In this document: piece by piece, positions 4,726-22,204 of the stretch
Numbering within the stretch: the first letter of the stretch is position 1
Layout: every line of letters begins with the position of its first letter
DNA from: a virus
Taxonomy: Duplodnaviria; Heunggongvirae; Uroviricota; Caudoviricetes
Reading direction: 5' to 3' (one strand)
IMG/VR virus record: IMGVR_UViG_2703718843_000003
Span: 1 to 22,204 of that record
Length of the DNA stretch: 22,204 nt
Program-made: the position numbers and the translations under genes
Notes under the pieces: model-generated
The model's input: the letters and a program-made list of their open reading frames with translations, nothing else
What the model was told of the DNA's origin: nothing
Databases searched by the model: none

Positions 4726-4773
4726 TGTTGAATGCTCCGGGCGGCAAGGCTGTGCCGCCACTTATCAGGTTAA

Positions 4774-6471: not shown

Positions 6472-6624
6472 GTTAGCCACCATTACGTTATTGAGTTCGC
6501 AGTGATAATCCCTCATGTTGGAATGTCACTCACGCTATTGCGGGTCTGGCCGGACGGCGACAACAAAAACCGATTTGGTGTCTCCCGCGCGCGTGGGATC
6601 CTTCGCCGGAAGAAGGGGGAAAGC

Positions 6625-7761: not shown

Positions 7762-7800
7762 AATGAAATGGAGTTCAACTCCCACAGGGGAGCCATCATT

Positions 7801-8049: not shown

Positions 8050-8174
8050 CCACTGTCAAAGTGCCCCCGTAAATCCATTCAGTGCGGGGGCAACTTCAAG
8101 CAAAACGCTTTTTCCAGAGAAAATATCTTTGATAACATCGGTCAGCATATTAATAGCGATGATGGGATAGGGAT

Positions 8175-8558: not shown

Positions 8559-8576
8559 GGGATGTTTCAGTAAGAT

Positions 8577-8600
8577 GCCGGGCAGAAGCCCGGCTTTTTT
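8577..8600 (+). terminator. Rho-independent terminator after the lipoprotein gene
   Basis: GCCGGGC-AGAA-GCCCGGC perfect 7-bp stem followed by TTTTTT. Confidence 0.7.
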
Positions 8601-8693
8601 ATGTCGAAGTGTAGTCAAAATGTAGACGAAGTTTAGAATAAATCCTTTTATTCCAGTTTGTTACATGCGGAATATCTTCACCATCCCTGTCTT

Positions 8694-8720
8694 CCCCCAC
8701 ATGATGTGGGGGTTTTTTTT
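8694..8720 (+). terminator. Second hairpin plus T8 tract inside the att region
   Basis: CCCCCAC-ATGAT-GTGGGGG followed by TTTTTTTT; may be the reconstituted terminator of the host gene the phage integrates next to, or part of the attP core. Confidence 0.55.
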
Positions 8721-8732
8721 ATCAATCACTTA
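8720..8732. promoter_or_regulatory. IHF-consensus site (WATCAANNNNTTR) in the att region
   Basis: TATCAATCACTTA matches the IHF consensus exactly; located between the hairpin and the Int arm-type repeats. Confidence 0.35.
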
Positions 8733-8805
8733 CATCGGTTTCCGTAAGAAAACAGTAACTTAAGAAAACCTATAAGGGACTGGAAGGGCTACAAAGTTCT
8801 GAGAG

Positions 8806-8826
8806 TGTGGACACTATGTGGACACT
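8806..8826. repeat. Tandem direct repeat TGTGGACACT x2 (putative Int arm-type P' sites)
   Basis: Perfect 10-bp tandem copies separated by 1 bp, 12 bp from the int stop codon; matches the P2 Int arm-site consensus TGTGGACA as I remember it. Degenerate copies (GTGTAGTC, TGTAGACG) occur at 8609-8628 on the other side. Confidence 0.5.
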
Positions 8827-8838
8827 CAGAAGGGAAAT

Positions 8839-9819
8839 TTATAACGTCACTCCGCCTTTTAGAGGATTCAGCGCGACGGCATTTTGCAGGTAGTCAGGCG
8901 CAAGGTGCGCATAGGCCATCGTCTGCTGAATGCTCGCATGTCCCAGAATCTGTTGCAGTGCGATTATATTGCCCCCATTCATCATGAAATGGCTTGCGAA
9001 TGTATGCCGCAGGATGTGGGTTGCCTGATTGGGTGGTATATCTGGCTTCACTCTGCGTAAAATCCCGCAAAACTTCTCATAATCAACTTTGAATAATTTA
9101 GCGCTGGCCTCCTCTTTAACTTTTTTCTCCAGTTCCTCAGAAATCGGCACGGTTCGCTTTTTACCGTTTTTGGTTTTCAGGAAGGTAACCCTGCAATTTG
9201 TAATCTGTGCTGGTTTTAGCGTGGCAACTTCCGTCCATCTTCCTCCAGTGCTCAGACATAAAAGTGCGACAAGTAAGTCATCACCATCCAAAACATTTAA
9301 CAGTTTTTCGATTTCTGCCTTTTCCAGGAACGTCATTTCAGGGTTGGCCTCCGCCAGTGGCGGCAGTCCGTGAATTGGGTGTTGCCCGGAAAATTCATCC
9401 AATTGAATTAATTTTGTGAACATGCCGGATAATCGGTACATGTCACGGTTTATCGTTGCGGCACTGATACCATTTCGTAGTCGCATGGAACGATAATCCA
9501 TCAAAGCTCTTTTGCTCATCCGGCTCACTGGTATATCACCTATGCCGCTGATGGTTTTGAGCAGATGATTAAACTCTTTTGTTCCATGCTCGTGGTTTTG
9601 CCCGTGATATTTCCACCAGATGTCCAGCAACTCACTCAAAGTTCTGCGATCTGCTCGCTGACCTGCCCATTCTTTCTGGCTGGCGTAGGCGATTGTGTAT
9701 CGCTCAAATGCTACAGCCTCAGCTTTTCTTTCAAATTTCCTGCGGATGCGTTTTCCGTCGCGACCGCGAGGTCTAATGTCCACTTCATAGCGTCCATCAT
9801 CGAGCTTCTTAATTGACAT
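8839..9819 (-). CDS. int: Tyrosine integrase (P2 Int family)
   Basis: Start MSIKKLDDGRYEVDIRPRGRDG matches the remembered P2 Int N-terminus; C-terminal catalytic region with HxLRHT (ATHILRHTFASH) and the conserved Tyr context (MAYAHLAP). Confidence 0.9.
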   Translation of the reverse strand: MSIKKLDDGRYEVDIRPRGRDGKRIRRKFERKAEAVAFERYTIAYASQKEWAGQRADRRTLSELLDIWWKYHGQNHEHGTKEFNHLLKTISGIGDIPVSRMSKRALMDYRSMRLRNGISAATINRDMYRLSGMFTKLIQLDEFSGQHPIHGLPPLAEANPEMTFLEKAEIEKLLNVLDGDDLLVALLCLSTGGRWTEVATLKPAQITNCRVTFLKTKNGKKRTVPISEELEKKVKEEASAKLFKVDYEKFCGILRRVKPDIPPNQATHILRHTFASHFMMNGGNIIALQQILGHASIQQTMAYAHLAPDYLQNAVALNPLKGGVTL

Positions 9820-9888
9820 AAGAAAGCCCTCTGACGCTGTATTCACCATCTTGGTAACAAATGGTGAAAATGTAATGTTTATAGAGTG

Positions 9889-10182
9889 TTAACCAGTCTG
9901 TTTTTCGGAGTGGTCTGATTCTGTTGGTTTTTGCCCAATGTGTGCGAGAGCCGGCGCGATCTGACCAGCTTGTGGTGACGTATCACCAGTCATTAACCAG
10001 AGCGTATATTTTTTAAATAAAGGCGTATTTGTGACTCGCATAACGATGCTGAGACCAGGGTCTTTATGCCCACTTTCGTAATTTTTGACTGTTCCTAGAG
10101 CTATCCCGCTAATTTCGCTGAATTTCGCCTGTGTTAAGCCTTCTGCTTTCCTAATCGCTTTCAGTTTTTCGAATGTCTGCAT
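9889..10182 (-). CDS. C: Immunity repressor C (P2 C family, HTH)
   Basis: 97 aa; N-terminal HTH and C-terminal TKYTLWLMTGD...QAGQIAPALAHIGQ match the remembered P2 C repressor; divergent from cox with face-to-face promoters. Confidence 0.85.
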   Translation of the reverse strand: MQTFEKLKAIRKAEGLTQAKFSEISGIALGTVKNYESGHKDPGLSIVMRVTNTPLFKKYTLWLMTGDTSPQAGQIAPALAHIGQKPTESDHSEKQTG

Positions 10183-10238
10183 TTGACAGTAACCTATTGG
10201 TGACTTATATTCCCGTCAAAAGGTTGTGTATTGGTGAC
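10183..10238 (+). promoter_or_regulatory. Early promoter Pe (TTGACA-N17-TATATT) with two direct operator repeats TATTGGTGAC
   Basis: -35 TTGACA at 10183-10188, -10 TATATT at 10206-10211, 17-bp spacer; 10-bp direct repeats at 10195-10204 and 10229-10238 flank the -10, the arrangement described for P2 C operators O1/O2. Confidence 0.5.
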
Positions 10239-10254
10239 CTTTTGAGTGTGTTAG

Positions 10255-10295
10255 CCAGTCCCTAGAAAGGACAGGGGCGACCTAGAAGGGACTGG
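10255..10295. repeat. Imperfect palindrome CCAGTCCC...GGGACTGG enclosing two CCTAGAA(A/G)GG repeats
   Basis: Perfect 8-bp inverted repeat arms 10255-10262 and 10288-10295 with internal direct repeats, upstream of cox; candidate Cox/Pc regulatory element. Confidence 0.3.
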
Positions 10296-10334
10296 ATCTA
10301 ATAAGGGTAACACGAAAGCAAAAAGGGCTAATCA

Positions 10335-10607
10335 ATGGAAGTCAATGACTATGTGATTCAGTACCCGATTGATGCGGTACATACGGTTAAGTTTGCAGAG
10401 TTACTTGGTAAGCCAGAAACGGCTGTAGTCAAGATGGTAAAAGAGAATAAATTGCCAGTTATTGAGCTTCGTGATCCAAGTAAGCCGAACGCTCGTGTCG
10501 GTGAGAAGTGGGTTTTCATTCCAGAGTTTAATCGCGCTGTACGAGAGGCGTTTTATAACCGACCAGTTGAACAGCGTGATGCATGGCTTTTGTGGATGGG
10601 GTTGTGA
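10335..10607 (+). CDS. cox: Cox (excisionase / lytic-switch repressor of Pc)
   Basis: 90 aa at the P2 cox position; KLPVIEL...GEKWVFIPEFN...RDAWLLWMGL resembles remembered P2 Cox. Confidence 0.8.
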   Translation: MEVNDYVIQYPIDAVHTVKFAELLGKPETAVVKMVKENKLPVIELRDPSKPNARVGEKWVFIPEFNRAVREAFYNRPVEQRDAWLLWMGL

Positions 10608-10609
10608 TT

Positions 10610-10780
10610 ATGAGTGAACCGCGTTGTATTGCTCAGTTACTGCGTAACGAAAGCCCCAGGGCGATTGACTTCACCATCACCCACGGTAAGGGGCGTAAGG
10701 GAATCATTATCCGCACCAAAAAACAGAGTCCGTTAAAAAAGGCTCTGACCTTTCTGAAAAGCTGGAGGGTCTGGAAATGA
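10610..10780 (+). CDS. Small hypothetical protein (P2 orf78 position)
   Basis: ATG 10610 three nt after cox stop; stop overlaps gene B start (ATGA); basic 56-aa product. Confidence 0.45.
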   Translation: MSEPRCIAQLLRNESPRAIDFTITHGKGRKGIIIRTKKQSPLKKALTFLKSWRVWK

Positions 10781-11277
10781 CAGTGATGACGCTCAATCTC
10801 GTTGAAAAACAGCCAGCAGCTATGCGCCGGATAATTGGCAAGCATCTTGCCGTCCCTCGCTGGCAGGATACATGTGATTATTATAATCAGATGATGGAAC
10901 GCGAACGGCTAACGGTTTGCTTCCATGCGCAGTTAAAACAACGTCACGCAACGATGCGTTTTGAAGAAATGAACGACGTCGAACGTGAACGGCTGGTTTG
11001 TGCAATTGATGAATTGCGTGGGGCATTCTCAAAACGCCGTCAGGTCGGTGCAAGTGAGTATGCATATATTAGCTTTTTAACTGTCAGTCAGCGCCGTACT
11101 TTATTTATGCATGCCAGATTGACTGAAAAAGAATTCAACCAGCCATACTGGCGAATTAATGAAGAGTCATGTTACTGGCGTGATGCTTTATTCCGTGCAT
11201 TACGTGAATTATTCAGCCTGTTTGAGTATGCACCGACAATTCTGACGTCGGTAAAACCAGAGCAATATCTGCATTAA
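10777..11277 (+). CDS. B: Replication protein gpB (helicase-loader-like)
   Basis: 166 aa; sequence essentially collinear with my recollection of P2 gpB (MTVMTLNLVEKQPAAMRRIIGKHLAVPRWQDTCDYYNQMMERERL...). Confidence 0.85.
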   Translation: MTVMTLNLVEKQPAAMRRIIGKHLAVPRWQDTCDYYNQMMERERLTVCFHAQLKQRHATMRFEEMNDVERERLVCAIDELRGAFSKRRQVGASEYAYISFLTVSQRRTLFMHARLTEKEFNQPYWRINEESCYWRDALFRALRELFSLFEYAPTILTSVKPEQYLH

Positions 11278-11340
11278 GTAATTAACCAGAGTTTTTAACG
11301 CACTTAATTGTGCGGGGCTTCTTTTTGCCTGGAGAAAGTC

Positions 11341-11565
11341 ATGCATACAGTTTCTGAAAATCAGTGCGGTAAATACGTATTACTGCTGCAACAGGCCAGA
11401 ACCGAAGCACAGGCCGACGCGGCGACGCGCTTTTCTTCTCATCTTGACGCCATGATTCGCCACATCACAAAGGCGGAGTTATCCCGCGTGGAGATAGTCG
11501 AGCTGCTCAGTCAGGAGTCGGAAAAATTTCACAATATCGGATTGTCTCGCGGGGAGGTGCTTTGA
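11341..11565 (+). CDS. Hypothetical protein (P2 orf80 position)
   Basis: ATG 11341 with GGAGAAAG SD; stop overlaps next start (TGATG). Confidence 0.45.
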
Positions 11566-11867
11566 TGTCCTGTTCTCATTCAGTTGTATTACTGAATAAC
11601 GCCTTAAAAATCGCCGTTATGGGAAATGGTGATTTGTCTCTTATTCAACTTTGTCTTGATAAAGAAAAACGCGACATAACTGAATCTGTTATCGCGATTT
11701 ATCAGAATGAATTAAACCTTCTGTCTGATGTGGTCAATTTACTTGTTAAACGCGCTGTATTCCACAAGCAAATTTCCTCCGTGGATGAACTGACAAAATT
11801 AACGACAGAAATCGTCAGCTATTGCGCTGATGAATTTAAGAAACTGAACGACAAAAGGAACTGGTAA
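11565..11867 (+). CDS. Hypothetical protein (P2 orf81 position)
   Basis: ATG 11565 with GGGGAGG SD; translationally coupled to neighbours. Confidence 0.5.
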   Translation: MSCSHSVVLLNNALKIAVMGNGDLSLIQLCLDKEKRDITESVIAIYQNELNLLSDVVNLLVKRAVFHKQISSVDELTKLTTEIVSYCADEFKKLNDKRNW

Positions 11868-12091
11868 TGCCGGACAACGTAGATTTCATTCAGGAACAAC
11901 AGGCTGAATTACTGGAGCGCCAGATTAACGCGGCAAGGGTAAAACATTGCGGTGTTTCTGCGCTGGTTTGCGAAGAGTGTGACGTGCCAATACCTGCTGC
12001 CCGTCGTGCGGCTTATCCGTCAGCCACGCGTTGTGTTTCCTGTCAGTCAGTCTTTGAAGCAAAAAACAAACATTACCGGAGAATGGCATGA
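11867..12091 (+). CDS. TraR/DksA-family C4 zinc-finger protein (P2 orf82 position)
   Basis: C-x2-C ... C-x2-C motif (VCEECDVPIP...RCVSCQ) typical of the phage TraR/DksA family; start overlaps previous stop (TAATG). Confidence 0.7.
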   Translation: MPDNVDFIQEQQAELLERQINAARVKHCGVSALVCEECDVPIPAARRAAYPSATRCVSCQSVFEAKNKHYRRMA

Positions 12092-12363
12092 GTATTCGTA
12101 TCGAAATTGGCGAACGTTATGTCGTTACCAGTGACAGCTTTCAGTTTATTCTCCACGAGAAAAAGAGAGCGGAAAGCGGTAAAAACGCCGGTCAGGAGTG
12201 GCTGGCGGTGGTTGGTTATTACCCGAAATTAAGCCAGCTCGTTTCCGGCCTGATGCATCACGATATTCTGACCGGAAGCGCAAAGTCTTTTGCTGATTTA
12301 AACGCGCAGGTTGAGCAACTCAGCAAGCGTTGTTCAGAGGCTTTTGGCTCATATGACCGTTAA
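12088..12363 (+). CDS. Hypothetical protein (P2 orf83 position)
   Basis: 91-aa ORF overlapping the start of gene A. Confidence 0.5.
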   Translation: MSIRIEIGERYVVTSDSFQFILHEKKRAESGKNAGQEWLAVVGYYPKLSQLVSGLMHHDILTGSAKSFADLNAQVEQLSKRCSEAFGSYDR

Positions 12364-14629
12364 AGCCTCCGGGCATTTTGTCCCTCCGTCAGCATTTGCC
12401 GCAGGCACCGGTGAGACGTTTACCGGTGCTTATGCATGGAACGCGCCACGCGAGGCCGTCGGGCGCGAAAGACCCCTTACACGTGACGAGATGCGTCAGG
12501 TGCAAGGTGTTTTATCCACGATTAACCGCCTGCCTTACTTTTTGCGCTCGCTGTTTACTTCACGCTATGACTACATCCGGCGCAATAAAAGCCCGGTACA
12601 CGGGTTTTATTTCCTCACATCCACTTTTCAGCGTCGTTTATGGCCGCGCATTGAGCGCGTGAATCAGCGCCATGAAATGAACACCGACGCGTCGTTGCTG
12701 TTTCTGGCAGAGCGTGACCACTATGCGCGTCTGCCGGGGATGAATGACAAGGAGCTGAAAAAGTTTGCCGCCCGTATTTCATCGCAGCTTTTCATGATGT
12801 ATGAGGAACTCTGCGATGCCTGGGTGGATGCGCATGGCGAAAAAGAATCACTGTTTACGGATGAGGCGCAGGATCATCTGTATGGTCATGTTGCTGGCGC
12901 TGCACGTGCTTTCAATATTTCCCCGCTCTACTGGAAAAAATACCGTAAAGGACAGATAACCACGAGGCAGGCATATTCTGCCATTGCCCGCCTGTTTAAC
13001 GATGAGTGGTGGACTCATCAGCTTAAAGGCCAGCGTATGCGCTGGCATGAAGCGTTACTGATAGCTGTCGGGGAGGTCAATAAAGACCGTTCTCCTTATG
13101 CCAGTAAACATGCCATTCGTGATGTGCGTGCGCGCCGCCAGGCAAATCTGGAATTTCTTAAATCGTGTGACCTTGAAAACAGGGAAACCGGCGAGCGCAT
13201 CGACCTTATCAGTAAGGTGATGAGCAGTATTTCTAATCCTGAAATTCGCCGGATGGAGCTGATGAACACCATTGCCGGTATTGAGCGTTACGCCGCTGCA
13301 GAGGGTGATGTGGGGATGTTTATCACGCTGACCGCGCCGTCAAAGTATCACCCGACACGTCAGGTCGGAAAAGGCGAAAGTAAAACCGTCCAGCTTAATC
13401 ACGGCTGGAATGATGAGGCATTTAATCCAAAGGATGCGCAGCGATATCTCTGCCATATCTGGAGCCTGATGCGCACGGCATTCAAGGATAATGATTTACA
13501 GGTCTACGGTTTGCGAGTCGTCGAGCCACACCACGACGGAACGCCGCACTGGCATATGATGCTTTTTTGTAATCCACGCCAGCGTAACCAGATTATCGAA
13601 ATCATGCGTCGCTATGCGCTCAAAGAGGATGGCGACGAAAGAGGAGCCGCGCGAAACCGTTTTCAGGCAAAACACCTTAACCGGGGCGGTGCTGCGGGGT
13701 ATATCGCGAAATACATCTCAAAAAATATCGACGGCTATGCACTGGATGGTCAGCTCGATAACGATACCGGCAGACCGCTGAAAGACACTGCCGCGGCTGT
13801 TACCGCATGGGCGTCAACGTGGCGCATTCCGCAATTTAAAACGGTTGGCCTGCCGACAATGGGGGCTTACCGTGAACTACGCAAATTGCCTCGCGGCGTC
13901 AGCATTGCTGATGAGTTTGACGAACGCGTCGAGGCTGCACGCGCTGCCGCAGACAGTGGCGATTTTGCGCTGTATATCAGCGCGCAAGGTGGGGCAAATG
14001 TCCCGCGCGATTGTCAGACTGTCAGGGTTGCCCGTAGCCCGTCGGATGACGTTAACGAGTATGAGGAAGAAGTCGAGAGAGTGGTCGGCATTTACGCGCC
14101 TCATCTCGGCGCGCGTCATATTCATATCACCAGAACGACGGACTGGCGCATTGTGCCGAAAGTGCCAGTCGTTGAGCCTTTGACTTTAAAAAGCGGCATC
14201 GCCGCGCCTCGGAGTCCTGTCAATAACTGTGGAAAGCTCACCGGTGGTGATACTTCGTTACCGGCTCCCACACCTTCTGAACACGCCGCAGCAGTGCTTA
14301 ATCTGGTTGATGACGGTGTTATCGAATGGAATGACCCGGAGGTCGTGAGGGCGCTCAGGGGCGCATTAAAATACGGGCTGAGAACACCAAATCGTCAGCA
14401 GAGAAACGGAAGCCCGTTAAAACCACATGAAATTGCACCATCGGCCAGACTGACCCGGTCGGAAAGAATGCAAATTACCCGTATCCGCGTTGACCTTGCT
14501 CAGAACGGTATCAGGCCGCAGCGATGGGAGCTTGAGGCGCTGGCGCGTGGCGCGACCGTAAATTATGACGGGAAACCTTTCACTTATCAGGTCGCTGATG
14601 ATTGGCCGGGATTTTTGTTACCCATTTGA
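12353..14629 (+). CDS. A: Replication initiation endonuclease gpA (rolling-circle nickase)
   Basis: Start MTVKASGHFVPPSAFAAGTGETFTGAYAWNAPREAVGRERPLTRDEMRQ is near-identical to the remembered P2 gpA; contains the HUH-like GTPHWHMMLF region and the active-site Tyr region AGYIAKYISKNIDGYAL. Confidence 0.9.
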   Translation: MTVKASGHFVPPSAFAAGTGETFTGAYAWNAPREAVGRERPLTRDEMRQVQGVLSTINRLPYFLRSLFTSRYDYIRRNKSPVHGFYFLTSTFQRRLWPRIERVNQRHEMNTDASLLFLAERDHYARLPGMNDKELKKFAARISSQLFMMYEELCDAWVDAHGEKESLFTDEAQDHLYGHVAGAARAFNISPLYWKKYRKGQITTRQAYSAIARLFNDEWWTHQLKGQRMRWHEALLIAVGEVNKDRSPYASKHAIRDVRARRQANLEFLKSCDLENRETGERIDLISKVMSSISNPEIRRMELMNTIAGIERYAAAEGDVGMFITLTAPSKYHPTRQVGKGESKTVQLNHGWNDEAFNPKDAQRYLCHIWSLMRTAFKDNDLQVYGLRVVEPHHDGTPHWHMMLFCNPRQRNQIIEIMRRYALKEDGDERGAARNRFQAKHLNRGGAAGYIAKYISKNIDGYALDGQLDNDTGRPLKDTAAAVTAWASTWRIPQFKTVGLPTMGAYRELRKLPRGVSIADEFDERVEAARAAADSGDFALYISAQGGANVPRDCQTVRVARSPSDDVNEYEEEVERVVGIYAPHLGARHIHITRTTDWRIVPKVPVVEPLTLKSGIAAPRSPVNNCGKLTGGDTSLPAPTPSEHAAAVLNLVDDGVIEWNDPEVVRALRGALKYGLRTPNRQQRNGSPLKPHEIAPSARLTRSERMQITRIRVDLAQNGIRPQRWELEALARGATVNYDGKPFTYQVADDWPGFLLPI

Positions 14630-14814
14630 GTAAAAATACAGCGTGATTTTATATGTCTTTGAATGGATTATGCGAAGCACCTCTAAGGTAGATGAGGAGC
14701 AATAGTGTGTTGAATCAGAAGGCTAAATTGTATTGAATCGTTAGCATGTAATTGAAGGCAGCTATTTGATTCGAGTCATAAAAGAGCATCTATTTCGGTT
14801 AATAAAACCATTGC

Positions 14815-14860
14815 GAGTGACTTTATGTCGAAGCATAATTCATCTCGAGCGAAGTCTTGC
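14815..14860. repeat. Direct repeat copy 1 (GAGTGACT ... GAGCGAAGTCTTGC)
   Basis: Shares an 8-mer and a perfect 14-mer with copy 2 at 15100-15124; copy 1 has a 24-bp internal expansion. Confidence 0.45.
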
Positions 14861-14889
14861 TAGTCTTTCATCGGATTGATGACGGGCGC

Positions 14890-14919
14890 AAAAAAACCAC
14901 CCTGGCAGGTGGTTTTTTT
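14890..14919. terminator. Bidirectional rho-independent terminator (A7-CCACC..GGTGG-T7)
   Basis: Symmetric hairpin flanked by an A run and a T run; closes the replication operon on + and the small minus-strand ORF on -. Confidence 0.65.
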
Positions 14920-14931
14920 GTTTGAAGCATA

Positions 14932-15045
14932 CTAAAGAAAAATACTTACATGGATATTACTGACGTTTACTGACAAACCACTCGGACTACCATATGGATA
15001 GCCAAAGAGGGCCAGAACGAGAATGCAGTAATAGCACTTCTTCAT
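14932..15045 (-). CDS. Candidate 37-codon mini-gene encoding a small hydrophobic Cys-containing peptide
   Basis: Minus-strand AGGAGG SD 4 nt before ATG (15045); peptide MKKCYYCILVLALFGYPYGSPSGLSVNVSNIHVSIFL; stop TAG at 14932-14934 followed 13 nt later by the bidirectional terminator. Not in the ORF track (below its length cutoff). Coding status unproven. Confidence 0.3.
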   Translation of the reverse strand: MKKCYYCILVLALFGYPYGSPSGLSVNVSNIHVSIFL

Positions 15046-15099
15046 ATCGCCTCCTGTAAGCAGAGGGCAATTTCCGCCGATATATGCGCTTCTAAGGCG

Positions 15100-15124
15100 G
15101 AGTGACTATTGAGCGAAGTCTTGC
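15100..15124. repeat. Direct repeat copy 2 (GAGTGACTATTGAGCGAAGTCTTGC)
   Basis: See copy 1; the two copies bracket the terminator and the mini-ORF. Confidence 0.45.
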
Positions 15125-15701
15125 CCTGAAATAATGCTCTGTTTAAACGCAAAGTGATCTGGCATATCACTGAACAGAGAACCTGAACAACACAACATAT
15201 AGTATGTCGTTGTTTCTGGTTGCATTTTATGTTGTGTAATACTGGTTTTGCATCAAGGATGTTTGAGCTTTTTTTGATATAGCTCAAAGTAAAAAGCAGA
15301 GACTACGGATGATAAGGTCTTGAAAGCAATGTAAATTTTTTAAAGTTGTGAGTGGCTAGAAATGCACAGTTTCAATATGGCGGATTTAAACAAGTAATTA
15401 AAAATAGCGCCATAAATTCCAATAAAATCATTATGTTGCGTTTTCTGTGGAAACTGCGGTGACTCTGAAATTTTCTTTTAGTGTCGCTGAGGTTTAACAA
15501 CTCGCTGCGCAAGTAGTTAGTGTTTTTTTAACTCAATATCCTGATTTATAAGGTTTTTTATAAATCGTTGGCTGATTGCGCGTATTCATCTCGTGTTATC
15601 AGCAAAGATAAGCGCTATATGCAAAACTGAATGCATATATGATGTCGAAAATGTTATGGGAAAACGTGGATTAGTGTTATAGTAATGGCTGAAAAACAGC
15701 A

Positions 15702-15740
15702 TTGACATAAAATAACAACTGTGATATGGCTGTGCATACT
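15702..15740 (+). promoter_or_regulatory. Putative sigma70 promoter for the peptidase/membrane-protein pair
   Basis: TTGACA at 15702-15707; weak -10 candidates TATGGC (17-bp spacer, TG at -15/-14) or CATACT; about 30-60 bp upstream of a strong AGGAGG SD. Confidence 0.35.
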
Positions 15741-15766
15741 TAACTTTTTTAACGTAGGAGGCAACC

Positions 15767-16252
15767 ATGAGCTATGCAGCTAAAAAACTGCTTGACCGCT
15801 ATTGGGATCGCCGACTACCTGTCGATCCGTTTAAGCTTGCTAAAGCGTGGGGTGCTCGTGTTGAAGCACTTGAGGAATCGGCTTATAACAACGATGGGTT
15901 AAGCGGTCTGGCTGTCATCAAAAAGGGTGTCCATAGGATTTATTTTGATTCTAGTGAACATTCTAATCGTCAACGTTTTACTGTTGCACACGAGTTAGGT
16001 CATCATGTGCTGGGGCATACCCAGGACGGAGAGTACCATCGGGATAATGTCGGGAATTATTCAACAGGTGCTCGTGATTACCGTGAGGTTGAAGCAAACA
16101 AGTTTGCTGCTGAGTTGTTAATGCCTGAGTCTGCTATACGTCAATTGGTATCCAGAGAAGGTATTGATAGCACTTTGAGATTAGCAAGCATCTTTAATGT
16201 ATCAGAAGCCGCTATGCATTGGCGCTTAAAGAGCTTAGGAATGGCTTATTAA
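15767..16252 (+). CDS. ImmA/IrrE-family (M78-like) zinc metallopeptidase, orphan (no adjacent HTH partner)
   Basis: HEXXH motif H75-E-L-G-H79 followed by the family signature E107-V-E-A-N-K-F-A-A-E-L-L-M-P; ideal SD AGGAGG 5 nt upstream of ATG; AT-rich codon usage. Confidence 0.8.
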   Translation: MSYAAKKLLDRYWDRRLPVDPFKLAKAWGARVEALEESAYNNDGLSGLAVIKKGVHRIYFDSSEHSNRQRFTVAHELGHHVLGHTQDGEYHRDNVGNYSTGARDYREVEANKFAAELLMPESAIRQLVSREGIDSTLRLASIFNVSEAAMHWRLKSLGMAY

Positions 16253-16278
16253 TTAGCCTTTAACTTTTAACCTGTTTA

Positions 16279-16318
16279 AAATCACCTTTACGTTTGTACA
16301 TGTAAGGGTGATTTTTTT
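16279..16318 (+). terminator. Intergenic hairpin plus T7 tract (terminator/attenuator) that also contains the only SD-like sequence for the downstream gene
   Basis: AAATCACC (16279-16286) pairs with GGTGATTT (16307-16314), 20-nt loop, T run 16312-16318 ending at the ATG of the membrane-protein ORF; AAGGGTG in the 3' arm lies 8 nt before that ATG. Confidence 0.45.
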
Positions 16319-16918
16319 ATGGCTGATATTGATTTATCTGGACAGTCCCCAGAGCAAGGAACCACTCCTAAGGGCGATTTAGATCCTGATATCCTTATAA
16401 GGCGAGATCGACGCGATGGTATAGAGCGTAGAAGTATGCGATTAGTGCTCTCTGCCGTTGTGCTTTGTTTTGCTTGTACATTTCTATGGCAGGGGCTTAA
16501 CTTTGCTTTGGCTGTTGGAAATGGCTTGCTGGAAGCGAAAAGCAGTATTGCCACAGCGATAACACAAAAAGTAGATGCACAAACTTGTGTTTCAGCAGAA
16601 AAATGTTCTGCTTTATCTGCGGATCCGAAGATGGCTGATGAGAGGATAACACCATCTTCAGACACTAATAAAGTTAGAAAATCTATTTCTGGTTTATCCA
16701 CCGATTGGTTATCGGCCAGTTCTCTAATAGCTATTGTTGCATTCATCCTTGGTGTGGGTTTAACTTTGCTTTTGACTCTTCTTAAATCAGCATTTCAACA
16801 CCCGACAGATAAAGACTTTAGAACAAAGTCGACATCTAATACTATTGAGTTGGCCACGCCAATCAGTGAATTAATAATTGGTGTTCTGAATATAATTAAA
16901 GACAAACTATCTAAGTAA
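16319..16918 (+). CDS. Membrane protein with two predicted TM helices and a soluble N-terminal Arg/Asp-rich region
   Basis: Hydrophobic stretches RLVLSAVVLCFACTFLWQGLNFALAVG and LIAIVAFILGVGLTLLLTLL; no recognisable catalytic motif; 5' end uncertain (alternative Met at 16436). Confidence 0.65.
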   Translation: MADIDLSGQSPEQGTTPKGDLDPDILIRRDRRDGIERRSMRLVLSAVVLCFACTFLWQGLNFALAVGNGLLEAKSSIATAITQKVDAQTCVSAEKCSALSADPKMADERITPSSDTNKVRKSISGLSTDWLSASSLIAIVAFILGVGLTLLLTLLKSAFQHPTDKDFRTKSTSNTIELATPISELIIGVLNIIKDKLSK

Positions 16919-16959
16919 AGCATTAGTTGTGATTTTTTATTGGTTTTAGTGATAATACA

Positions 16960-16994
16960 TCTCCAGTACTTATTGCTACTGGAGAGTATTTTTA
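16960..16994. terminator. Bidirectional terminator between convergent cargo genes
   Basis: TCTCCAGTA-(8 nt loop)-TACTGGAGA perfect 9-bp stem followed by T-rich tract on +; 16 nt from the stop of the minus-strand 313-aa gene. Confidence 0.6.
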
Positions 16995-17000
16995 GTCGTT

Positions 17001-17942
17001 TTATATTTTTAATGTTAGTGAATGATATTCACGAGAGTTCACGTTCGATGTGATGTAATCGGGGGCGTTAACACCAAGAATCGCAACGAGCAATCGGCAA
17101 ATTAAAGCCTGCATTTGTTGTAATATGTCATCTCCATATTGATAATTGTTAATAGTGGTAAAGCCAAGTGGTTGACCATGAAACATAGCTTCATGAAAGT
17201 TTTCATTGCGGATGTTTGTAATGTTTTTTTTGCCTGTAACCCATGATGGTCGTGGTATGCCATAAGTTTTGCAGATCCACTTCAAGCGCCTGGAGTGATT
17301 TAGAGTCTTTTCTGTACACTTGTTCTTTTCTGCCCATGTTAAAGCAAAGCAACTATCCAGTGCCATATAAAGATACTGGAATTTTTCGAAGCTAAGGTAT
17401 TGTGGGTTTTGGGATAAAAATAGTGCATGCACTATTGCTGCTATATTTATTGGTGCGTGTTTGGTTTTTTTCTCGCTAGACATGTATTTGAGTGCTAATT
17501 CTATAACCTCTTTTTCAGAGCACTTGACCAGAATAAAGTCAGTTAATTTGCTGGGTTTTATTGGGGTTGCGTCTAAAAAACCGGCATCAGTAGTTGTTAA
17601 TCTTATCCCTTTGAAAAAAGACAGACACCACACAGCAAAATTGAGAGTTTCTAGTGAAGATGTATTTTTTAATTTTAGTGAGTGTGTTTTGGGTAAGCCA
17701 AATACTCGTTGGCTAAAAGGCATTGTGGATATGCCTCCATTGAGGTTATATACTTCTTGGTTTCCTGGGTATATCCAACCGTTAATAACATTTCTGTGAT
17801 TGTTTATAAGATTTGTTTTTTCCGCTAGACCGGGTAAAGTAAGTAAAGAAAAATCATCAGTTTCAACGTTAACCTCTACTGGATAGTATCCAAACTCAGC
17901 TTCAATATCATTGGATTGCTGTTCGTCAACTTTACCTTGCAT
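17001..17942 (-). CDS. Hypothetical 313-aa cargo protein, unknown family; possible HEPN-like R-x4-H motif
   Basis: Own SD (GGAG 6 nt before ATG 17942), AT-rich promoter-like sequences upstream, own terminator; R245-N-E-N-F-H250 (nt 17193-17210) fits the R-x4-6-H pattern of HEPN RNases, but no other HEPN evidence from inspection. Confidence 0.7.
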   Translation of the reverse strand: MQGKVDEQQSNDIEAEFGYYPVEVNVETDDFSLLTLPGLAEKTNLINNHRNVINGWIYPGNQEVYNLNGGISTMPFSQRVFGLPKTHSLKLKNTSSLETLNFAVWCLSFFKGIRLTTTDAGFLDATPIKPSKLTDFILVKCSEKEVIELALKYMSSEKKTKHAPINIAAIVHALFLSQNPQYLSFEKFQYLYMALDSCFALTWAEKNKCTEKTLNHSRRLKWICKTYGIPRPSWVTGKKNITNIRNENFHEAMFHGQPLGFTTINNYQYGDDILQQMQALICRLLVAILGVNAPDYITSNVNSREYHSLTLKI

Positions 17943-18179
17943 ACATTGCTCCGGTCAAAAATAGGCTCGATAATTCTCGTAAGCCTATCATGTTCGCAAA
18001 GTATCCATACCTGTGGATTTTGTAAATTTAAGTTGATTTGTCATTAAATAAGCCGTGCATGCAACAAGTGAATGTTTTTGCATGCGTCGGGGATGCCCGT
18101 TCCGGCTGCTTGCGGTCAGAGCTGGTGCGGATCCATAGTATCTAAGCAACTGCATTAAAACCGCCCTATGAAGCGGGCG

Positions 18180-18198
18180 GGCGAGGCGGGGAAAGCAC
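18180..18198. other. cos cohesive-end sequence GGCGAGGCGGGGAAAGCAC
   Basis: Exact match to the 19-nt cohesive end of P2/186/P4 as I remember it, located between the cargo island and gene Q, where cos lies in the circular P2 map. Confidence 0.7.
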
Positions 18199-18340
18199 TG
18201 CGCGCTGGCGGTGGTGCTGATTTTATTTTTTCAGCGTCTGAGCGCGTCGTGAAGGCGCTTAGTCTGCCCGTTGAGGCGTTGGTGTGTCTGCGGGGTGTTT
18301 TGTGCGGTGGTGAGCGTGTGAGGGCGTGATGACGGGGTGT

Positions 18341-18362
18341 AAAAAAGCCGCCCGCAGGCGGC
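18341..18362 (-). terminator. Terminator of the Q-P late transcript
   Basis: GCCGCC-CGCA-GGCGGC hairpin preceded on + by A6 (a U tract after the hairpin on the minus-strand transcript), 5 nt past the Q stop. Confidence 0.5.
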
Positions 18363-18367
18363 GATGT

Positions 18368-19402
18368 TCAGCCGTTGTCAGTGTCCAGTGAGTAGTTTTT
18401 AAAGCGGATGACCTCCTGACCGAGCCAGCCGTTTATCTCGCGGATCCTGTCCTGTAGCGGGATAAGCTCATTGCGGACAAAGACCTTTGCCACTTTCTCA
18501 ATATCACCCAGCGACCCGACGTTCTCCGGCTTGCCGCCCATCAACTGAAAGGGGATGCGGTGCGCGTCCAGCAGGTCAGCGGCGCTGGCTTTTTTGATAT
18601 TAAAAAAATCGTCCTTCGTCGCCACTTCACTGAGCGGGATAATTTTAATGCCGTCGGCTTTCCCCTGCGGGGCATAGAGAAACAGGTTTTTAAAGTTGTT
18701 GCGGCCTTTCGACTTCACCATGTTTTCGCGGAGCACTTCGATATCGTTGCGATCCTGCACGGCATCGGTGACGTACATGATGTATCCGGCATGTGCGCCG
18801 TTTTCGTAATACTTGCGGCGGAACAGCGTGGCCGACTCATTCAGCCAGGCAGAGTTAAGGGCGCTGAGATATTCCGGCAGGCCGTACAGCTCCTGATTAA
18901 TATCCGGCTCCAGCAGGTGAAACACGGAGCCGGGCGTGAAGGCTGTCGGCTCGTTGAAGGACGGCACCCACCAGTAAACATCCTCCTCCACGCCACGACG
19001 GGTATATTTGGCCGGTGAGGTTTCCAGTCTGATGACCTTACCGGTGGTGCTGTAACGCTTTTCCAGAAACGCATTACCGAACACCAGAAAATCCAGCACA
19101 AAGCGGCTGAAATCCTGCTGGGAAAGCCACGGATGCGGGATAAATGTCGAGGCCAGAATATTACGTTTGACGTAAATCGGGGAGCTGTGATGCACGGCAG
19201 CACGCAGGCTTTTTGCCAGACCGGTAAAGCTGATTGGTGGCTCATACCATCTGCCGTTACTGATGCACTCGACGTAATCCAGAATGTCACGGCGGTCGAG
19301 TACCGGCACCGGCTCACCAAAGGTGAATGCCTCCATTTTCGGGGCGCTGGCGGTCATTTTTTTTGCCGCAGGTTGCGGTGTTTTCCCTTTTTTCTTGCTC
19401 AT
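18368..19402 (-). CDS. Q: Portal protein gpQ
   Basis: 344 aa; position next to cos and downstream of P with TGATG stop/start overlap; sequence resembles remembered P2 Q. Confidence 0.9.
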   Translation of the reverse strand: MSKKKGKTPQPAAKKMTASAPKMEAFTFGEPVPVLDRRDILDYVECISNGRWYEPPISFTGLAKSLRAAVHHSSPIYVKRNILASTFIPHPWLSQQDFSRFVLDFLVFGNAFLEKRYSTTGKVIRLETSPAKYTRRGVEEDVYWWVPSFNEPTAFTPGSVFHLLEPDINQELYGLPEYLSALNSAWLNESATLFRRKYYENGAHAGYIMYVTDAVQDRNDIEVLRENMVKSKGRNNFKNLFLYAPQGKADGIKIIPLSEVATKDDFFNIKKASAADLLDAHRIPFQLMGGKPENVGSLGDIEKVAKVFVRNELIPLQDRIREINGWLGQEVIRFKNYSLDTDNG

Positions 19403-21174
19403 CAGTAAAACTCCAGAATGGTGGATGTCAGCGGGGTGCTGATACCGGCGGTGAGTGGCTCATTTAACAGGGCGTGCATGGTCGCCCAGGCGAGGTCGGC
19501 GTGGCTGGCTTCCTCGCTGCGGCTGGCCTCATAGGTGGCGCTGCGTCCGCTGCTGGTCATGGTCTTGCGGATAGCCATAAACGAGCTGGTGATGTCGGTG
19601 GCGCTGACGTCATATTCCAGACAGCCACGACGGATAACGTCTTTTGCCTTGAGCACCATTGCGGTTTTCATTTCCGGTGTGTAGCGGATATCGCGCGCGG
19701 CGGGATAGAACGAGCGCACGAGCTGGAACACGCCGACACCGAGGCCGGTGGCATCAATACCGATGTATTCGACGTTATATTTTTCGGTGAGTTTGCGGAT
19801 GGATTCAGCCTGGGTGGCAAAGTCCATGCCTTTCCACTGGTGACTCTCAAGTATTCTGAATTTGCCTCCGGCCACTACCGGCGGTGCCAGTACCACGCAT
19901 CCGGCGCTGTCGCCACGGTGTGACGGGTCGTAACCAATCCAGACCGGGCGGGAGCCGAACGGATTCGCGGCAAACGGCGCATAGTCTTCCCATTCTTCCA
20001 GCGTGTCGACCATGCAGCGTTGCAGCTCCTCGAACGGGAACACCGACGCCTTGTCGTCAACAAATTCACACATGAACAGGTTTTTAAAATCGTCGGCGCT
20101 GTTTTCGCGTTTAAGCTGCTCAATGTCGAACAGCGTGCAGCCACCTTTCAGGGCGTCCTCAATGGTGACAATCTGCCGCCACTGGCCGTCCGCACAGAGA
20201 AGCCCACCGGCAAGGGCGTTATGACTGACGTCGATTTCCACACGTTCGGCGGCGCTGGCGCGTCCCCGGTTGAACAGTTCACCCGACCAGAACGGGTAGG
20301 CGTCGTGCGCCAGCGTGGACGGGGTGGAGAAATAGGTCGAGCGCAGGTGACTCTGTGAGGCCATACCTGATGCCACCTTACGCAGTACCTGAAAATTCGG
20401 GATCCAGAAAATCTCGTCGACGTACAGGTCACCGTTATGGCTCTGTGCGGTGTTGGAGTTGGTGCCGAGAAAAATCAGTTTTGCGCCGTTATTGCCCAGG
20501 ACAATCGGGTCACCGGTCAGGTCAACGTCAACCAGCCGGGCAAAGGCGATGATGTATTCGCGGAACACATACGCCTGCGTTTTACTGGCCGACAGAAAAA
20601 TCTGGTTATGACCGGTTTTCAGGGCGCGCAGCAGCGCCTCGCGGGAAAAATAAAACGTTGCGCCAATCTGGCGGGATTTCAGGATATCGCGGATGCGGTG
20701 CTCAAGCCCGGCGCGATACCAGTGCAACTGATATTCGAAAGACTGCTCAAAGAAAATCTGCTCCAGCTTTTCGATGGCCTCGTCACTGAAAAAATTCTTT
20801 TTCGGTTTGCGACGCCCGCCTTTGTTGCGGTTAGCGACGTTCGGATTAAGGTCTGCCTCGTTGCCGGTCTGGCTGTAGCGGTTTACCCGTGCCAGTCGTT
20901 CAATCTGGCGTCCGAGCAGGTCAATTTCCTTGAAGTCACCGCCGGTTTTCTGCGGTTTGATGATGAGCTGGGTCAGCCGCGCTTCCAGGCTCATTTCGAC
21001 ACGGCTGATGGGGGCAACACTGTCCCAGCCGTCGCGCTGTTTCCAGCTCTGCACCGTCGGGCGTTTCATCTGCAACATGGCGGCAATCTGCGGCACGGAA
21101 AAACCCTGCCAGTACAGCAGCGCCGCCTGACGACGCGGGTCGTGTAAAAGAGTGGTGTCTGTGGTGATGGTCAT
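19402..21174 (-). CDS. P: Terminase ATPase (large) subunit gpP
   Basis: Start MTITTDTTLLHDPRRQAALLYWQG with GAGG SD 5 nt upstream; ATPase and nuclease-type regions; divergent from O as in P2. Track start 21204 is an upstream extension. Confidence 0.9.
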   Translation of the reverse strand: MTITTDTTLLHDPRRQAALLYWQGFSVPQIAAMLQMKRPTVQSWKQRDGWDSVAPISRVEMSLEARLTQLIIKPQKTGGDFKEIDLLGRQIERLARVNRYSQTGNEADLNPNVANRNKGGRRKPKKNFFSDEAIEKLEQIFFEQSFEYQLHWYRAGLEHRIRDILKSRQIGATFYFSREALLRALKTGHNQIFLSASKTQAYVFREYIIAFARLVDVDLTGDPIVLGNNGAKLIFLGTNSNTAQSHNGDLYVDEIFWIPNFQVLRKVASGMASQSHLRSTYFSTPSTLAHDAYPFWSGELFNRGRASAAERVEIDVSHNALAGGLLCADGQWRQIVTIEDALKGGCTLFDIEQLKRENSADDFKNLFMCEFVDDKASVFPFEELQRCMVDTLEEWEDYAPFAANPFGSRPVWIGYDPSHRGDSAGCVVLAPPVVAGGKFRILESHQWKGMDFATQAESIRKLTEKYNVEYIGIDATGLGVGVFQLVRSFYPAARDIRYTPEMKTAMVLKAKDVIRRGCLEYDVSATDITSSFMAIRKTMTSSGRSATYEASRSEEASHADLAWATMHALLNEPLTAGISTPLTSTILEFY

Positions 21175-21347
21175 GAATACCTCGCCGTGATGAATACACG
21201 GCAAGGCTACTGAGTCGCGACCTGCGATTCGCTAAGGTGCTGTTGTGTCAGTGATAAGCCATCCGGGACTGATGGCGGAGGATGCGCATCGTCGGGAAAC
21301 TGATGCCGACATGTGACTCCTCTAATCACTATTCAGGACTCCTGACA
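21175..21347. promoter_or_regulatory. Divergent late-promoter region between P and O (expected Ogr-dependent promoters)
   Basis: Position corresponds to the divergent late promoters of P2 (established map); contains inverted repeat GCCGTG-N7-CACGGC at 21184-21202. No exact TGT-N12-ACA element found by eye. Confidence 0.35.
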
Positions 21348-22202
21348 ATGGCAAAAAAAGTCTCAAAATTCTTTCGTATCGGCGTTGAGGGTGACACCTG
21401 TGACGGGCGTGTCATCAGTGCGCAGGATATTCAGGAAATGGCCGAAACCTTTGACCCGCGTGTCTATGGTTGCCGCATTAACCTGGAACATCTGCGTGGC
21501 ATCCTGCCTGACGGTATTTTTAAGCGTTATGGCGATGTGGTCGAACTGAAGGCCGAAAAGATTGACGACGATTCGGCGCTGAAAGGCAAATGGGCGCTGT
21601 TTGCGAAAATCACCCCGACCGATGACCTTATCGCGATGAACAAGGCCGCGCAGAAGGTCTACACCTCAATGGAAATTCAGCCGAACTTTGCCAATACCGG
21701 CAAATGTTATCTGGTGGGTCTGGCCGTCACCGATGACCCGGCAAGCCTCGGCACGGAATACCTGGAATTCTGCCGCACGGCAAAACACAACCCTCTGAAC
21801 CGCTTCAAATTAAGCCCTGAAAACCTGATTTCAGTGGCAACGCCCGTTGAGCTGGAATTTGAAGACCTGCCTGAAACCGTGTTCACCGCCCTGACCGAAA
21901 AGGTGAAATCCATTTTTGGCCGCAAACAGGCCAGCGATGACGCCCGTCTGAATGACGTGCATGAAGCGGTGACCGCTGTTGCTGAACATGTGCAGGAAAA
22001 ACTGAGCACCACTGAGCAGCGCCTCGCTGAGATGGAAAACGCCTTTTCCGCACTTAAGCAGGATGTGACTGACAGGGCGGATGAAACCAGCCAGGCATTC
22101 ACCCGCCTGAAAAACAGTCTCGACCACACCGAAAGTCTGACCCAGCAGCGCCGCAGTAAAGCCACCGGCGGTGGCGGTGACGCCCTGATGACGAACTGCT
22201 GA
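21348..22202 (+). CDS. O: Capsid scaffolding protein gpO
   Basis: MAKKVSKFFRIGVEGDTCDGRVISAQDIQEMAETFDPRVYGCRINLEHLRG is near-identical to remembered P2 gpO; complete gene ending at 22202. Track start 21282 is an upstream extension. Confidence 0.9.
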   Translation: MAKKVSKFFRIGVEGDTCDGRVISAQDIQEMAETFDPRVYGCRINLEHLRGILPDGIFKRYGDVVELKAEKIDDDSALKGKWALFAKITPTDDLIAMNKAAQKVYTSMEIQPNFANTGKCYLVGLAVTDDPASLGTEYLEFCRTAKHNPLNRFKLSPENLISVATPVELEFEDLPETVFTALTEKVKSIFGRKQASDDARLNDVHEAVTAVAEHVQEKLSTTEQRLAEMENAFSALKQDVTDRADETSQAFTRLKNSLDHTESLTQQRRSKATGGGGDALMTNC

Positions 22203-22204
22203 CC

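Follow-up and report, generated by a model that had tools for sequence, protein, structure and literature searches.

We propose that, in the genome of a P2-like phage, a hairpin between two genes holds the product of the second gene at a low level relative to the product of the first. The DNA is IMG/VR record IMGVR_UViG_2703718843_000003, of which we analyzed positions 1 to 22,204 (the window, 22,204 nt in length). The upstream gene encodes a peptidase of the M78 family, and the downstream gene encodes a protein with two hydrophobic, presumably transmembrane (TM), segments, which we will call the 2-TM protein. In our preferred reading, to which we assign a probability of roughly 0.6, the hairpin would be a constitutive attenuator between the two cistrons, acting in part as an intrinsic terminator and in part as a lock on the Shine-Dalgarno (SD) sequence of the membrane-protein gene. 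All of the evidence on the hairpin comes from sequence comparison and from computed folding of the window and of homologous loci (numbered L002 and so on). The positions of the features are in Table 1.

The hairpin is a real, non-random structure. A previous description of this DNA, made from its letters only (the sequence-only reading), had placed a stable stem with a T7 tract about 26 nt past the peptidase stop codon, with the tract reaching the ATG of the next gene, and these coordinates are correct. The stem begins 25-26 nt past the stop codon, on the sense strand, between two co-directional genes. A repeat finder reports a DNA inverted repeat with arms at 16278-16291 and 16302-16315 that are 93% complementary. 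The RNA stem has 16 pairs (16278-16293 with 16300-16315), including one U-G pair, and four of the seven T's of the T7 tract are paired to the upstream AAAA. The minimum free energy of the 88-nt context is -23.6 kcal/mol, versus -10.5 +/- 2.75 kcal/mol for dinucleotide shuffles (z = -4.76), and none of 200 shuffles was as good. The isolated hairpin is at -17.9 kcal/mol, or -14.1 kcal/mol once the four A:U tract pairs are removed. This is the anatomy of an intrinsic terminator: a stable sense-strand stem-loop after a stop codon, with an uninterrupted U-run directly 3' of it. It is also the anatomy of an SD-sequestering structure, with the SD inside the stem and paired to an anti-SD-like stretch.

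The SD of the membrane-protein gene is AAGGGTG (16304-16310), 8 nt before the ATG, and it overlaps GGGTGAT (16306-16312). We found no second purine-rich candidate in the gap between the stop codon and the ATG: AAGGGTGAT stands alone and lies wholly within the 3' arm, just as the sequence-only reading had it. In the RNA, GGGUGAU (16306-16312) base-pairs with AUCACC(U) (16281-16287). We take the AUCACC or TCACC of the 5' arm to be the sequence of the anti-SD end of the 16S rRNA, and GGUGAU to be complementary to the 3' end of the 16S rRNA. Because the SD and the stem overlap, occlusion of the SD is inevitable while the stem is folded. The computed cost of opening the region from -20 to +10 around the membrane-gene start is 16-24 kcal/mol in the enterobacterial loci; in the same loci, opening the ribosome-binding region of the peptidase gene is computed to cost 6-14.5 kcal/mol. 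The peptidase gene has an exposed, invariant AGGAGG, whereas the SD of the membrane-protein gene is buried and non-canonical.

The hairpin is strongly conserved. We aligned 16 distinct enterobacterial intergenic sequences (alignment A2, 51 columns), and all 16 have the same hairpin directly 5' of the ATG. AATCACC, GGTGATTTTTT, and the ATG are invariant in 16/16 (26/51 columns), and so is the lower stem, AATCACC/GGTGAT. Every sequence has an uninterrupted run of 6-8 T's. As a neutral yardstick, we used four-fold degenerate third positions in the adjacent gene, counting only codons whose encoded residue does not vary among these loci. At these sites the mean pairwise identity is 0.316 and none of the 22 is invariant. 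Since synonymous sites are near saturation, the identity of the hairpins is not due to recent common descent and reflects selection. The length of the gap between the two genes is also kept (66-74 nt, except in two distant loci that are discussed below), while the spacer upstream of the stem differs in sequence between clades.

Where the stem does vary, the changes preserve pairing. Columns 23-38 of A2 are UA in 10 sequences and CG in 6; columns 21-40 are AU in 14 and UG in 2; columns 25-36 include UA, CG and UG; and columns 26-35 include UA, GU, UG and CG. Overall, 89.8% of the cells in A2 are paired, as compared to 31-67% if the partner is shifted by 1-3 columns. The covariation score is 0.157 (mean of shuffles 0.078), which was not reached by any of 500 shuffles. 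RNAalifold, which was run independently, gave the same stem with a 13-bp consensus. Across the homologs, the unpaired stretch between the arms is about 4-10 nt and its sequence is variable. Without the A:U tract, the energies of the hairpins across loci are -11.6 to -15.4 kcal/mol, and their U-runs are U5-U8. Such energies and U-run lengths fall within the range for intrinsic terminators of E. coli. Rfam has no matches that overlap 16253-16321 at E ≤ 1.

Two Vibrio-type loci (L034 and L036) have a hairpin with zero sequence in common with the enterobacterial one and an identical layout. It reads CCTAAGCCCTCA-AAAAA-TGAGGGCTTTTTAATG, which can also be written as AAGCCCTCA-loop-TGAGGGCTT-TTTA-ATG. 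An SD-like GAGGG is in the 3' arm, followed by T5 and an A, and the ATG comes at once. In L036, a C-to-T change converts a G-C pair to a G-U pair, so the pair is retained. Judging from these comparisons, the Vibrio clade is the strongest single piece of evidence that the layout is selected. The sequence-only reading called the element a terminator-type hairpin between two genes, and that anatomy not only is present in the window but is kept by selection, including in the unrelated Vibrio version.

We considered whether the sequence of the lower stem is specific to these two genes and rejected this, as it is frequent elsewhere in viral contigs. Hairpins of the form AATCACC...GGTGATTTTTT are common there: at least 120 stretches matched, and 3 of the matches listed are the gene pair studied here. 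Most of these viral-contig hairpins have no adjacent start codon and are terminator-like by anatomy alone, leaving their gene context aside. We also observed that in L051, L077, L090, L138, and L148, AATCACC...AATCGGAGGTGATTTTTT-ATG precedes an unrelated family of open reading frames (ORFs) of about 132 amino acids (M..SYQQYAIV.ADSAQ...). In that family, a perfect SD is paired with an upstream anti-SD copy just before the start codon.

The comparisons also indicate that the hairpin-adjacent ATG (16319) is the true start of the membrane-protein gene. Homologs begin with the motif M[AS]..(V/I)D(L/F/Y)S(G/A), which is followed by a Pro/Gln/Thr-rich linker of variable length and then by ERRxMR before the first hydrophobic segment. 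Two things lead us to regard this ATG as the real start: the N-terminal motif is conserved, and even with many indels no clade has lost the open frame that begins here. The start chosen by PGAP agrees. The GGTGAT is invariant at a fixed distance from this ATG, which implies that it is used as an SD. At least 90% of homologs have an internal methionine, Met40 (16436), which some gene callers take as the start. It is missing from L010, P0021, and the Vibrio clade, it is without an SD-like context in most loci, and in the window it is preceded only by a weak AGAAG. Given that the SD-like context is found in few homologs and that the Met is absent from others, Met40 as the start in the window is not supported. 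In two loci, L002 and L027, the Arg-Arg-Gly codons before Met49 (which corresponds to Met40 in the window) read AGGAGGGG, which is a strong, AGGAGG-type SD 3-4 nt upstream. Some relatives might thus make a short isoform that lacks the N-terminal tail.

If our preferred reading is correct, then a bicistronic transcript would begin at a putative promoter located some 60 nt 5' of the peptidase gene, and the hairpin would fold about 25 nt past the peptidase stop codon. With a spacer of 25 nt, the terminating ribosome should not reach or disturb the stem. The hairpin and the U7 would act as a partial intrinsic terminator, so that many transcripts would end just before the AUG. In RNAs that do read through, the SD (GGGUGAU) would pair with AUCACC, a layout that can be seen in the sequence, and initiation at the AUG (16319) would be rare. 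As a net result, membrane protein would be made at a fixed and low ratio relative to peptidase. By analogy, setting a ratio in this way is the logic of operons in which the antitoxin comes first and the toxin comes second. We infer termination, its efficiency, the repression of translation, and the harm from excess membrane protein from the sequence.

We think that both roles are needed to explain the conservation, because the spacer between an SD and its AUG need not be pure T and because termination can do without an invariant, SD-containing lower stem. The invariance of the lower stem is explained if GGTGAT is the SD and if the 5' arm must stay complementary to it. We read the element as constitutive rather than regulated because we found no sign of a switch. 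In particular, we looked for alternative pairings of either arm within 150 nt on either side, and none beat the duplex energies of shuffled sequences. We also considered a riboswitch, or an attenuator with an antiterminator, and rejected this since there is neither an alternative pairing nor an Rfam match at E ≤ 1.

The sequence-only reading had stated that expression of the membrane protein requires read-through and melting of the hairpin, or else a different start site. The position of the SD in the stem agrees with the first part of this claim, but the different start site is disfavored, as the hairpin-adjacent ATG is probably the true start. The same reading had the membrane protein kept off, which seems too strong. 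"Kept low" (with the hairpin setting a ratio) fits better, because purifying selection on the protein and a separate terminator downstream of its gene imply some read-through and some translation. It also named two ways in which the hairpin could be irrelevant: transcripts that start downstream of it, and translation from the internal Met at 16436. Our scans found no conserved promoter inside or after the hairpin, and Met40 is not conserved as a start.

Several observations weigh against our preferred reading. A consensus scan for promoters and terminators, whose rule is five T's after the counted stem, did not list the hairpin; this is apparently because four of the seven T's are counted as part of the stem. 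The base of the stem beside the U-run is A/U-rich (U-A, C-G, A-U, C-G, C-G), so weaker termination is expected, and it may be modest. The two genes differ in opening energy by 4 to 13 kcal/mol, which is not all-or-none, and the cost for the peptidase gene is itself not small. The toxicity of the membrane protein is an assumption. With the SD inside a stem of -14 to -18 kcal/mol, almost no translation would be predicted, and the protein is under selection nonetheless, so some other route for opening the stem may exist. With the predicted occlusion so strong, we have kept a version with a regulated gate under consideration (see below). Finally, L033 and L037, which are at 27-28% identity and AT-rich, have a gap of just 27-30 nt between the genes and no comparable hairpin, so not every member of the family has the double brake. 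In these two loci (L033, 2970-3001; L037, 673-701), there is neither an SD nor a comparable hairpin before the ATG.

Could the hairpin act on translation only? It would then sequester the SD, the U-run would be an A/U-rich spacer that pairs with the upstream A's, and there would be little or no termination. This would account for the lower stem being invariant, as SD and anti-SD; it fits with the A/U-rich base of the stem and with the terminator scan not calling the site; and most loci have a dedicated GC-rich terminator after the membrane gene. We consider this fairly unlikely, as a spacer would tolerate other bases, whereas the T run is pure in all 16 enterobacterial sequences at near-saturated divergence. 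Also, the unrelated Vibrio hairpin likewise ends in T5, and the hairpins of this type that occur in viral contigs away from start codons look like plain terminators. A regulated gate, which would be opened or cut upon a signal (a phage protein, RNase III, a small RNA, or temperature) so that the membrane protein is made only during infection or stress, strikes us as quite unlikely. Active opening would explain how a selected protein gets made in spite of a computed occlusion of 16-24 kcal/mol, and the invariant lower stem could serve as a recognition site. The two genes also lie in the A-Q interval (replication gene A to portal gene Q), a defense hotspot of P2-like phages (PMC9519451), and there is a precedent in AbiD1, with the phage protein Orf1 (PMC2661086). 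On the other hand, there is no alternative pairing above shuffles within 150 nt and no Rfam match, and the consensus scan gave no antisense promoter in the window. Furthermore, the two clades have no hairpin sequence in common, so a trans factor that recognizes the sequence would have to be a different one in each clade. A more elaborate form of the gate, in which the hairpin belongs to a new abortive-infection or toxin-antitoxin (TA)-like system, seems improbable to us. In this scenario, a solo M78 peptidase would be paired with a 2-TM effector whose mRNA is doubly locked, and infection would supply the opener. The opener might be a phage RNA-binding protein (as for AbiD1), RNase III or a phage nuclease that cuts the 16-bp stem, or the loss of a host factor. 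If this scenario is true, then sensing would in part be done by the RNA structure itself.

It is very unlikely, in our view, that the hairpin is just the terminator at the end of a peptidase operon, with the membrane gene being expressed from an overlapping promoter or from Met40 and with the occlusion of the SD being inconsequential. A relaxed scan allows the A-tract to be taken for a -10-like element (TAAAAT), and several P2-type loci have TTTAAC or TTAACT 15-16 nt upstream of it. The prevalence of Met40, the AGGAGG before it in L002 and L027, and the gene callers that start there would also be consistent with this explanation. In the window, however, TTTAAC is only 12 nt from TAAAAT, so that the candidate promoter is broken, and neither the second enterobacterial clade nor the Vibrio clade has an equivalent promoter. 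The consensus scan found no promoter near 16250-16320 on either strand. We rejected an internal promoter as a general explanation, as some loci have relaxed hexamer candidates and none of these is conserved across clades. As described above, the N-terminal tail and the open frame are kept from the hairpin-adjacent ATG in all clades, the GGTGAT remains at a fixed distance from ATG 16319, and Met40 is absent from several homologs and usually lacks an SD, including in the window. We also considered that the palindrome might function as DNA, as an operator for a dimeric DNA-binding protein or as a recombination site. The invariant half-sites AATCACC/GGTGATT do form a perfect inverted repeat, but their spacing varies from 14 to 20 nt, and the intervening bases covary to preserve pairing. 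The T run is one-sided and polar, the Vibrio palindrome is different, and the gene pair does not encode a DNA-binding protein. Variable spacing, covariation, and a polar T run imply a folded single strand and not the site of a dimer, so we consider a DNA-level role to be extremely unlikely.

This kind of control is already known. In type I TA mRNAs (hok, tisB, and zorO) and in phage holin genes (the sdi of lambda S), the SD is sequestered by a stem. The double brake that we propose is similar in that the SD of a membrane-protein gene is paired to an anti-SD stretch 5' of it, which would limit translation. It differs in that the protein has 199 amino acids and two TM segments, as opposed to a small protein or peptide. 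We found no antisense RNA, 5'-processing signal, or dual-start motif at the locus. The terminator T1 of rpsU-dnaG and the terminator of rplL-rpoB are partial terminators within operons that set stoichiometry, with the downstream product needed at a much lower level. These too are partial terminators between co-directional genes, but in those operons the terminator and the ribosome-binding site are separate, while here one hairpin carries both. The upstream gene invites comparison to CapH-CapP, ImmR-ImmA, and DdrO-IrrE, which also include an M78 (HEXXH) peptidase; ours is closest to CapP. In contrast to those pairs, no context of our gene pair includes a partner with an XRE-type helix-turn-helix (HTH), and the constant partner is the 2-TM protein. 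Since no ORF for an XRE-family HTH repressor is adjacent, we rejected membership in the CapH-CapP or ImmR-ImmA pairs.

In type III TA loci and AbiF loci, a Rho-independent terminator between the antitoxin and the toxin sets their ratio (PMC12373285). As in ToxIN and in AbiF-RCd22 (from C. difficile phage phi027), the proposed terminator lies within one unit and directly upstream of the putative effector, and in those systems the upstream component is in excess and read-through yields a long transcript (PMC12373285). They are also phage- or plasmid-borne. They differ in that their upstream component is a repeat RNA, where ours is the M78 peptidase, and in that our hairpin also holds the downstream SD and abuts the AUG. 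We found no tandem repeats in 14600-17100. We rejected membership in the type III (ToxIN-like) systems because the upstream element is a protein gene and there is no tandem-repeat antitoxin RNA. The lactococcal gene abiD1 is translated inefficiently from a structured initiation region and is activated by the phage protein Orf1 or by cold (PMC2661086), and a short, prematurely terminated transcript has been reported upstream of it (PMC2661086; PMC12373285). Here too, the putative effector gene of a possible defense locus has secondary structure in its initiation region and would be translated inefficiently. In contrast to abiD1, for which an activator is known (Orf1 or cold), none is predicted here; there is no relationship in DNA or protein sequence; and our gene is the second cistron, while abiD1 is the first. 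As far as the sequence tells, what is particular here is that one AUG-abutting stem has the layout of both a terminator and an SD lock, in two unrelated sequences, and that the genes form an uncharacterized pair of a solo M78 peptidase and a 2-TM protein without an HTH partner.

The sequence-only reading spoke of the peptidase and membrane-protein genes as two cargo genes. They are not independent and make up one conserved module. At every locus with a homolog of the 2-TM protein and with DNA that we could retrieve, a gene for an M78 peptidase (161-174 amino acids) is directly upstream and on the same strand. The pair is found in at least six genetic contexts, and the neighbors are different each time. 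L002-L005 are in P2-like prophages of Salmonella and E. coli; L006 and L007 are contigs with siphovirus-type head and terminase genes beside the module (the protein is named from Pectobacterium); L008 is in a chromosomal island of Serratia; L009 is a contig with a protein known from an Enterobacter plasmid; L010 is in a P1-like element from Citrobacter; L032 adjoins an integrase (Arm-DNA-binding) and transposase fragments; L035 is on a conjugative plasmid of V. parahaemolyticus; L034 and L036 are the Vibrio-type loci; and L033 and L037 are two very distant AT-rich contigs. Among closer loci (the window versus L002, L004, and L006), the peptidases are 86-89% identical and their 2-TM partners are 54-63% identical. 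Based on these contexts, the two genes are a single mobile module.

In most of the modules, the membrane gene is soon followed by a GC-rich terminator: AAACCGGCA...TGCCGGTTTTTTT in L002, GGCCG...CGGCCTTTTTT in L006, and AAAACCCGC...GCGGGTTTTT in L031; the window has the hairpin at 16960-16985 there. Since this terminator is a separate one, the unit does not end at the internal hairpin, and the polymerase should at least occasionally transcribe the second gene to its end. PADLOC 2.0 does not match the module as a whole to any described defense system. We searched the literature on the P2 defense hotspot and found no mention of ImmA or M78 and no such peptidase pair, and a literature search for the gene pair as a named defense system turned up nothing. 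In the Serratia island (L008, 6463-8246), about 1.8 kb past the module, there is a gene for a 223-amino-acid protein and then a gene for a 371-amino-acid fusion of HTH_3 and Peptidase_M78. This arrangement is RosmerTA-like and suggests a setting in a defense island.

The peptidase matches Peptidase_M78 from Pfam (PF06114, 3.8e-21), capP from PADLOC (1.1e-30), and the structure of CapP in the PDB (7t5t, 7.6e-7), and it belongs to phrog_87 (metallo-protease). It is a catalytic domain only and covers positions 8-153 of the 242-position capP profile. The RmrA profile of PADLOC also matches. The peptidase contains no HTH domain, and in all of the contexts that we examined, no ORF in the module encodes an HTH partner. 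The promoter-like element upstream (15702-15730) is a candidate for the peptidase promoter, by inference from the sequence: its TTGACA and its spacing are kept in related P2-type loci and in L006 (alignment A3). Its -10 hexamer is weak, which is why the consensus scan missed it. Around the SD of the peptidase gene, 8 of the 9 aligned loci agree on GNAGGAGGCNACCATGA at every position but two, L004 being short by one base, and the regions upstream differ.

We identified 51 homologs of the 2-TM protein. It belongs to phrog_8096 (function unknown), and it evolves under purifying selection. Besides the conserved N-terminal tail motif, it has two invariant cysteines between the hydrophobic segments and a C-terminal region with HPTD and ATPLSEL. 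Homologs differ mostly in the N-terminal linker and in the loop separating the segments, and this loop retains the two cysteines. The 2-TM protein has no match in Pfam above the threshold and no match in PADLOC, and a profile search of the genome contigs with the alignment of the family found no relative. AlphaFold2 gave a model with a mean pLDDT (predicted local distance difference test) of 64.9, and Foldseek found nothing in the PDB below E = 9.8, so the fold is uninformative about the function.

From 8679 to 22204, the window matches a P2-like prophage of E. coli AH21 (NZ_CP081711) at 99.985% identity, and in this strain the same phage is integrated beside cpxP. This region is present in 50 of 5,426 complete E. 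coli genomes and is chromosomal every time. The left end of the window (1-8723) contains P2-type tail genes (sheath, tube, tape measure, and D) that are joined to the integrase end, with the junction at about 8679-8838. Tail genes in the left 8.7 kb imply that the window is the circular, phage form of the genome (joined at attP). The hairpin is within the variable cargo region that runs from the replication gene A (ending at 14629) to the portal gene Q (18368-19402, minus strand), and this region is a known defense hotspot of P2-like phages (PMC9519451).

We also note some other features of the cargo region. Neither RefSeq nor the Peduovirus record NC_070905 annotates a gene in the 1.1-kb A/T-rich stretch between gene A and the peptidase gene (14630-15766). 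In phages with 2-TM proteins of just 55% identity, this stretch is 87% identical, and only its final ~120 nt (the putative promoter and the leader) move with the module. About 260 nt past gene A, at 14886-14922, is a symmetric hairpin, GCAAAAAAACCACCctggcaGGTGGTTTTTTTG, with A7 on one side and T7 on the other, which resembles a bidirectional terminator for gene A and for a small ORF on the minus strand. That unannotated ORF (14932-15045, minus strand) encodes 37 amino acids, MKKCYYCILVLALFGYPYGSPSGLSVNVSNIHVSIFL, has an AGGAGG 5 nt upstream as its SD, and ends just before the hairpin. In L004, 36 of the 37 amino acids are identical, with the surrounding DNA 87% identical, and there is no match to it in PHROG; it could be a gene for a small hydrophobic peptide or a toxin. 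The third cargo gene (17001-17942, minus strand) is convergent with the membrane gene and encodes a protein of 313 amino acids in phrog_5937 (function unknown), with no match in Pfam or PADLOC. This gene is absent from the other contexts of the module, which implies that it is separate cargo.

Table 1. Features in and around the peptidase/2-TM module, in window coordinates.
Feature	Position	Strand	Comment
Promoter-like element	15702-15730	+	TTGACA, 17 nt ending in TGA, TATGGC; read from sequence
SD of peptidase gene, AGGAGG	15756-15761	+	5 nt before ATG; strong, exposed
M78 peptidase gene, 161 amino acids	15767-16252	+	ImmA/IrrE; HELGH at residues 75-79
Stop codon of peptidase gene, TAA	16250-16252	+	Read from sequence
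Unpaired spacer, stop codon to hairpin	16253-16277	+	25 nt; sequence differs between clades
5' arm of hairpin, AAAATCACCTTTACGT	16278-16293	+	AAAA, TCACC, and variable upper stem
Loop of hairpin	16294-16299	+	6 nt, from RNA folding
3' arm of hairpin, ACATGTAAGGGTGATTTT	16300-16315	+	Holds the membrane-gene SD AAGGGTGAT (16304-16312)
T7 tract	16312-16318	+	Terminator-type U-run; doubles as the SD-to-AUG spacer
Start codon of membrane gene, ATG	16319-16321	+	Same start in RefSeq/PGAP annotation
2-TM protein gene, 199 amino acids	16319-16918	+	Hydrophobic segments at ~41-66 and ~128-156
Hairpin after membrane gene	16960-16985	both	Terminator-like, between convergent genes

For annotation, our results imply that the start at 16319 is correct even though its SD is buried. 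The hairpin would be a natural example of one stem with two predicted jobs: terminating transcription and burying the ribosome-binding site of the next gene. The hairpin provides a testable handle on an uncharacterized cargo module in the A-Q defense hotspot of P2-like phages. Mutations that separate the two functions can be designed straight from the alignment. The asymmetry between the two genes, with a strong AGGAGG for one and a locked site for the other, is the signature that would be expected of a protector and an effector. The hairpin also marks the peptidase and the 2-TM protein as a self-contained, horizontally mobile operon with a built-in asymmetry of expression.

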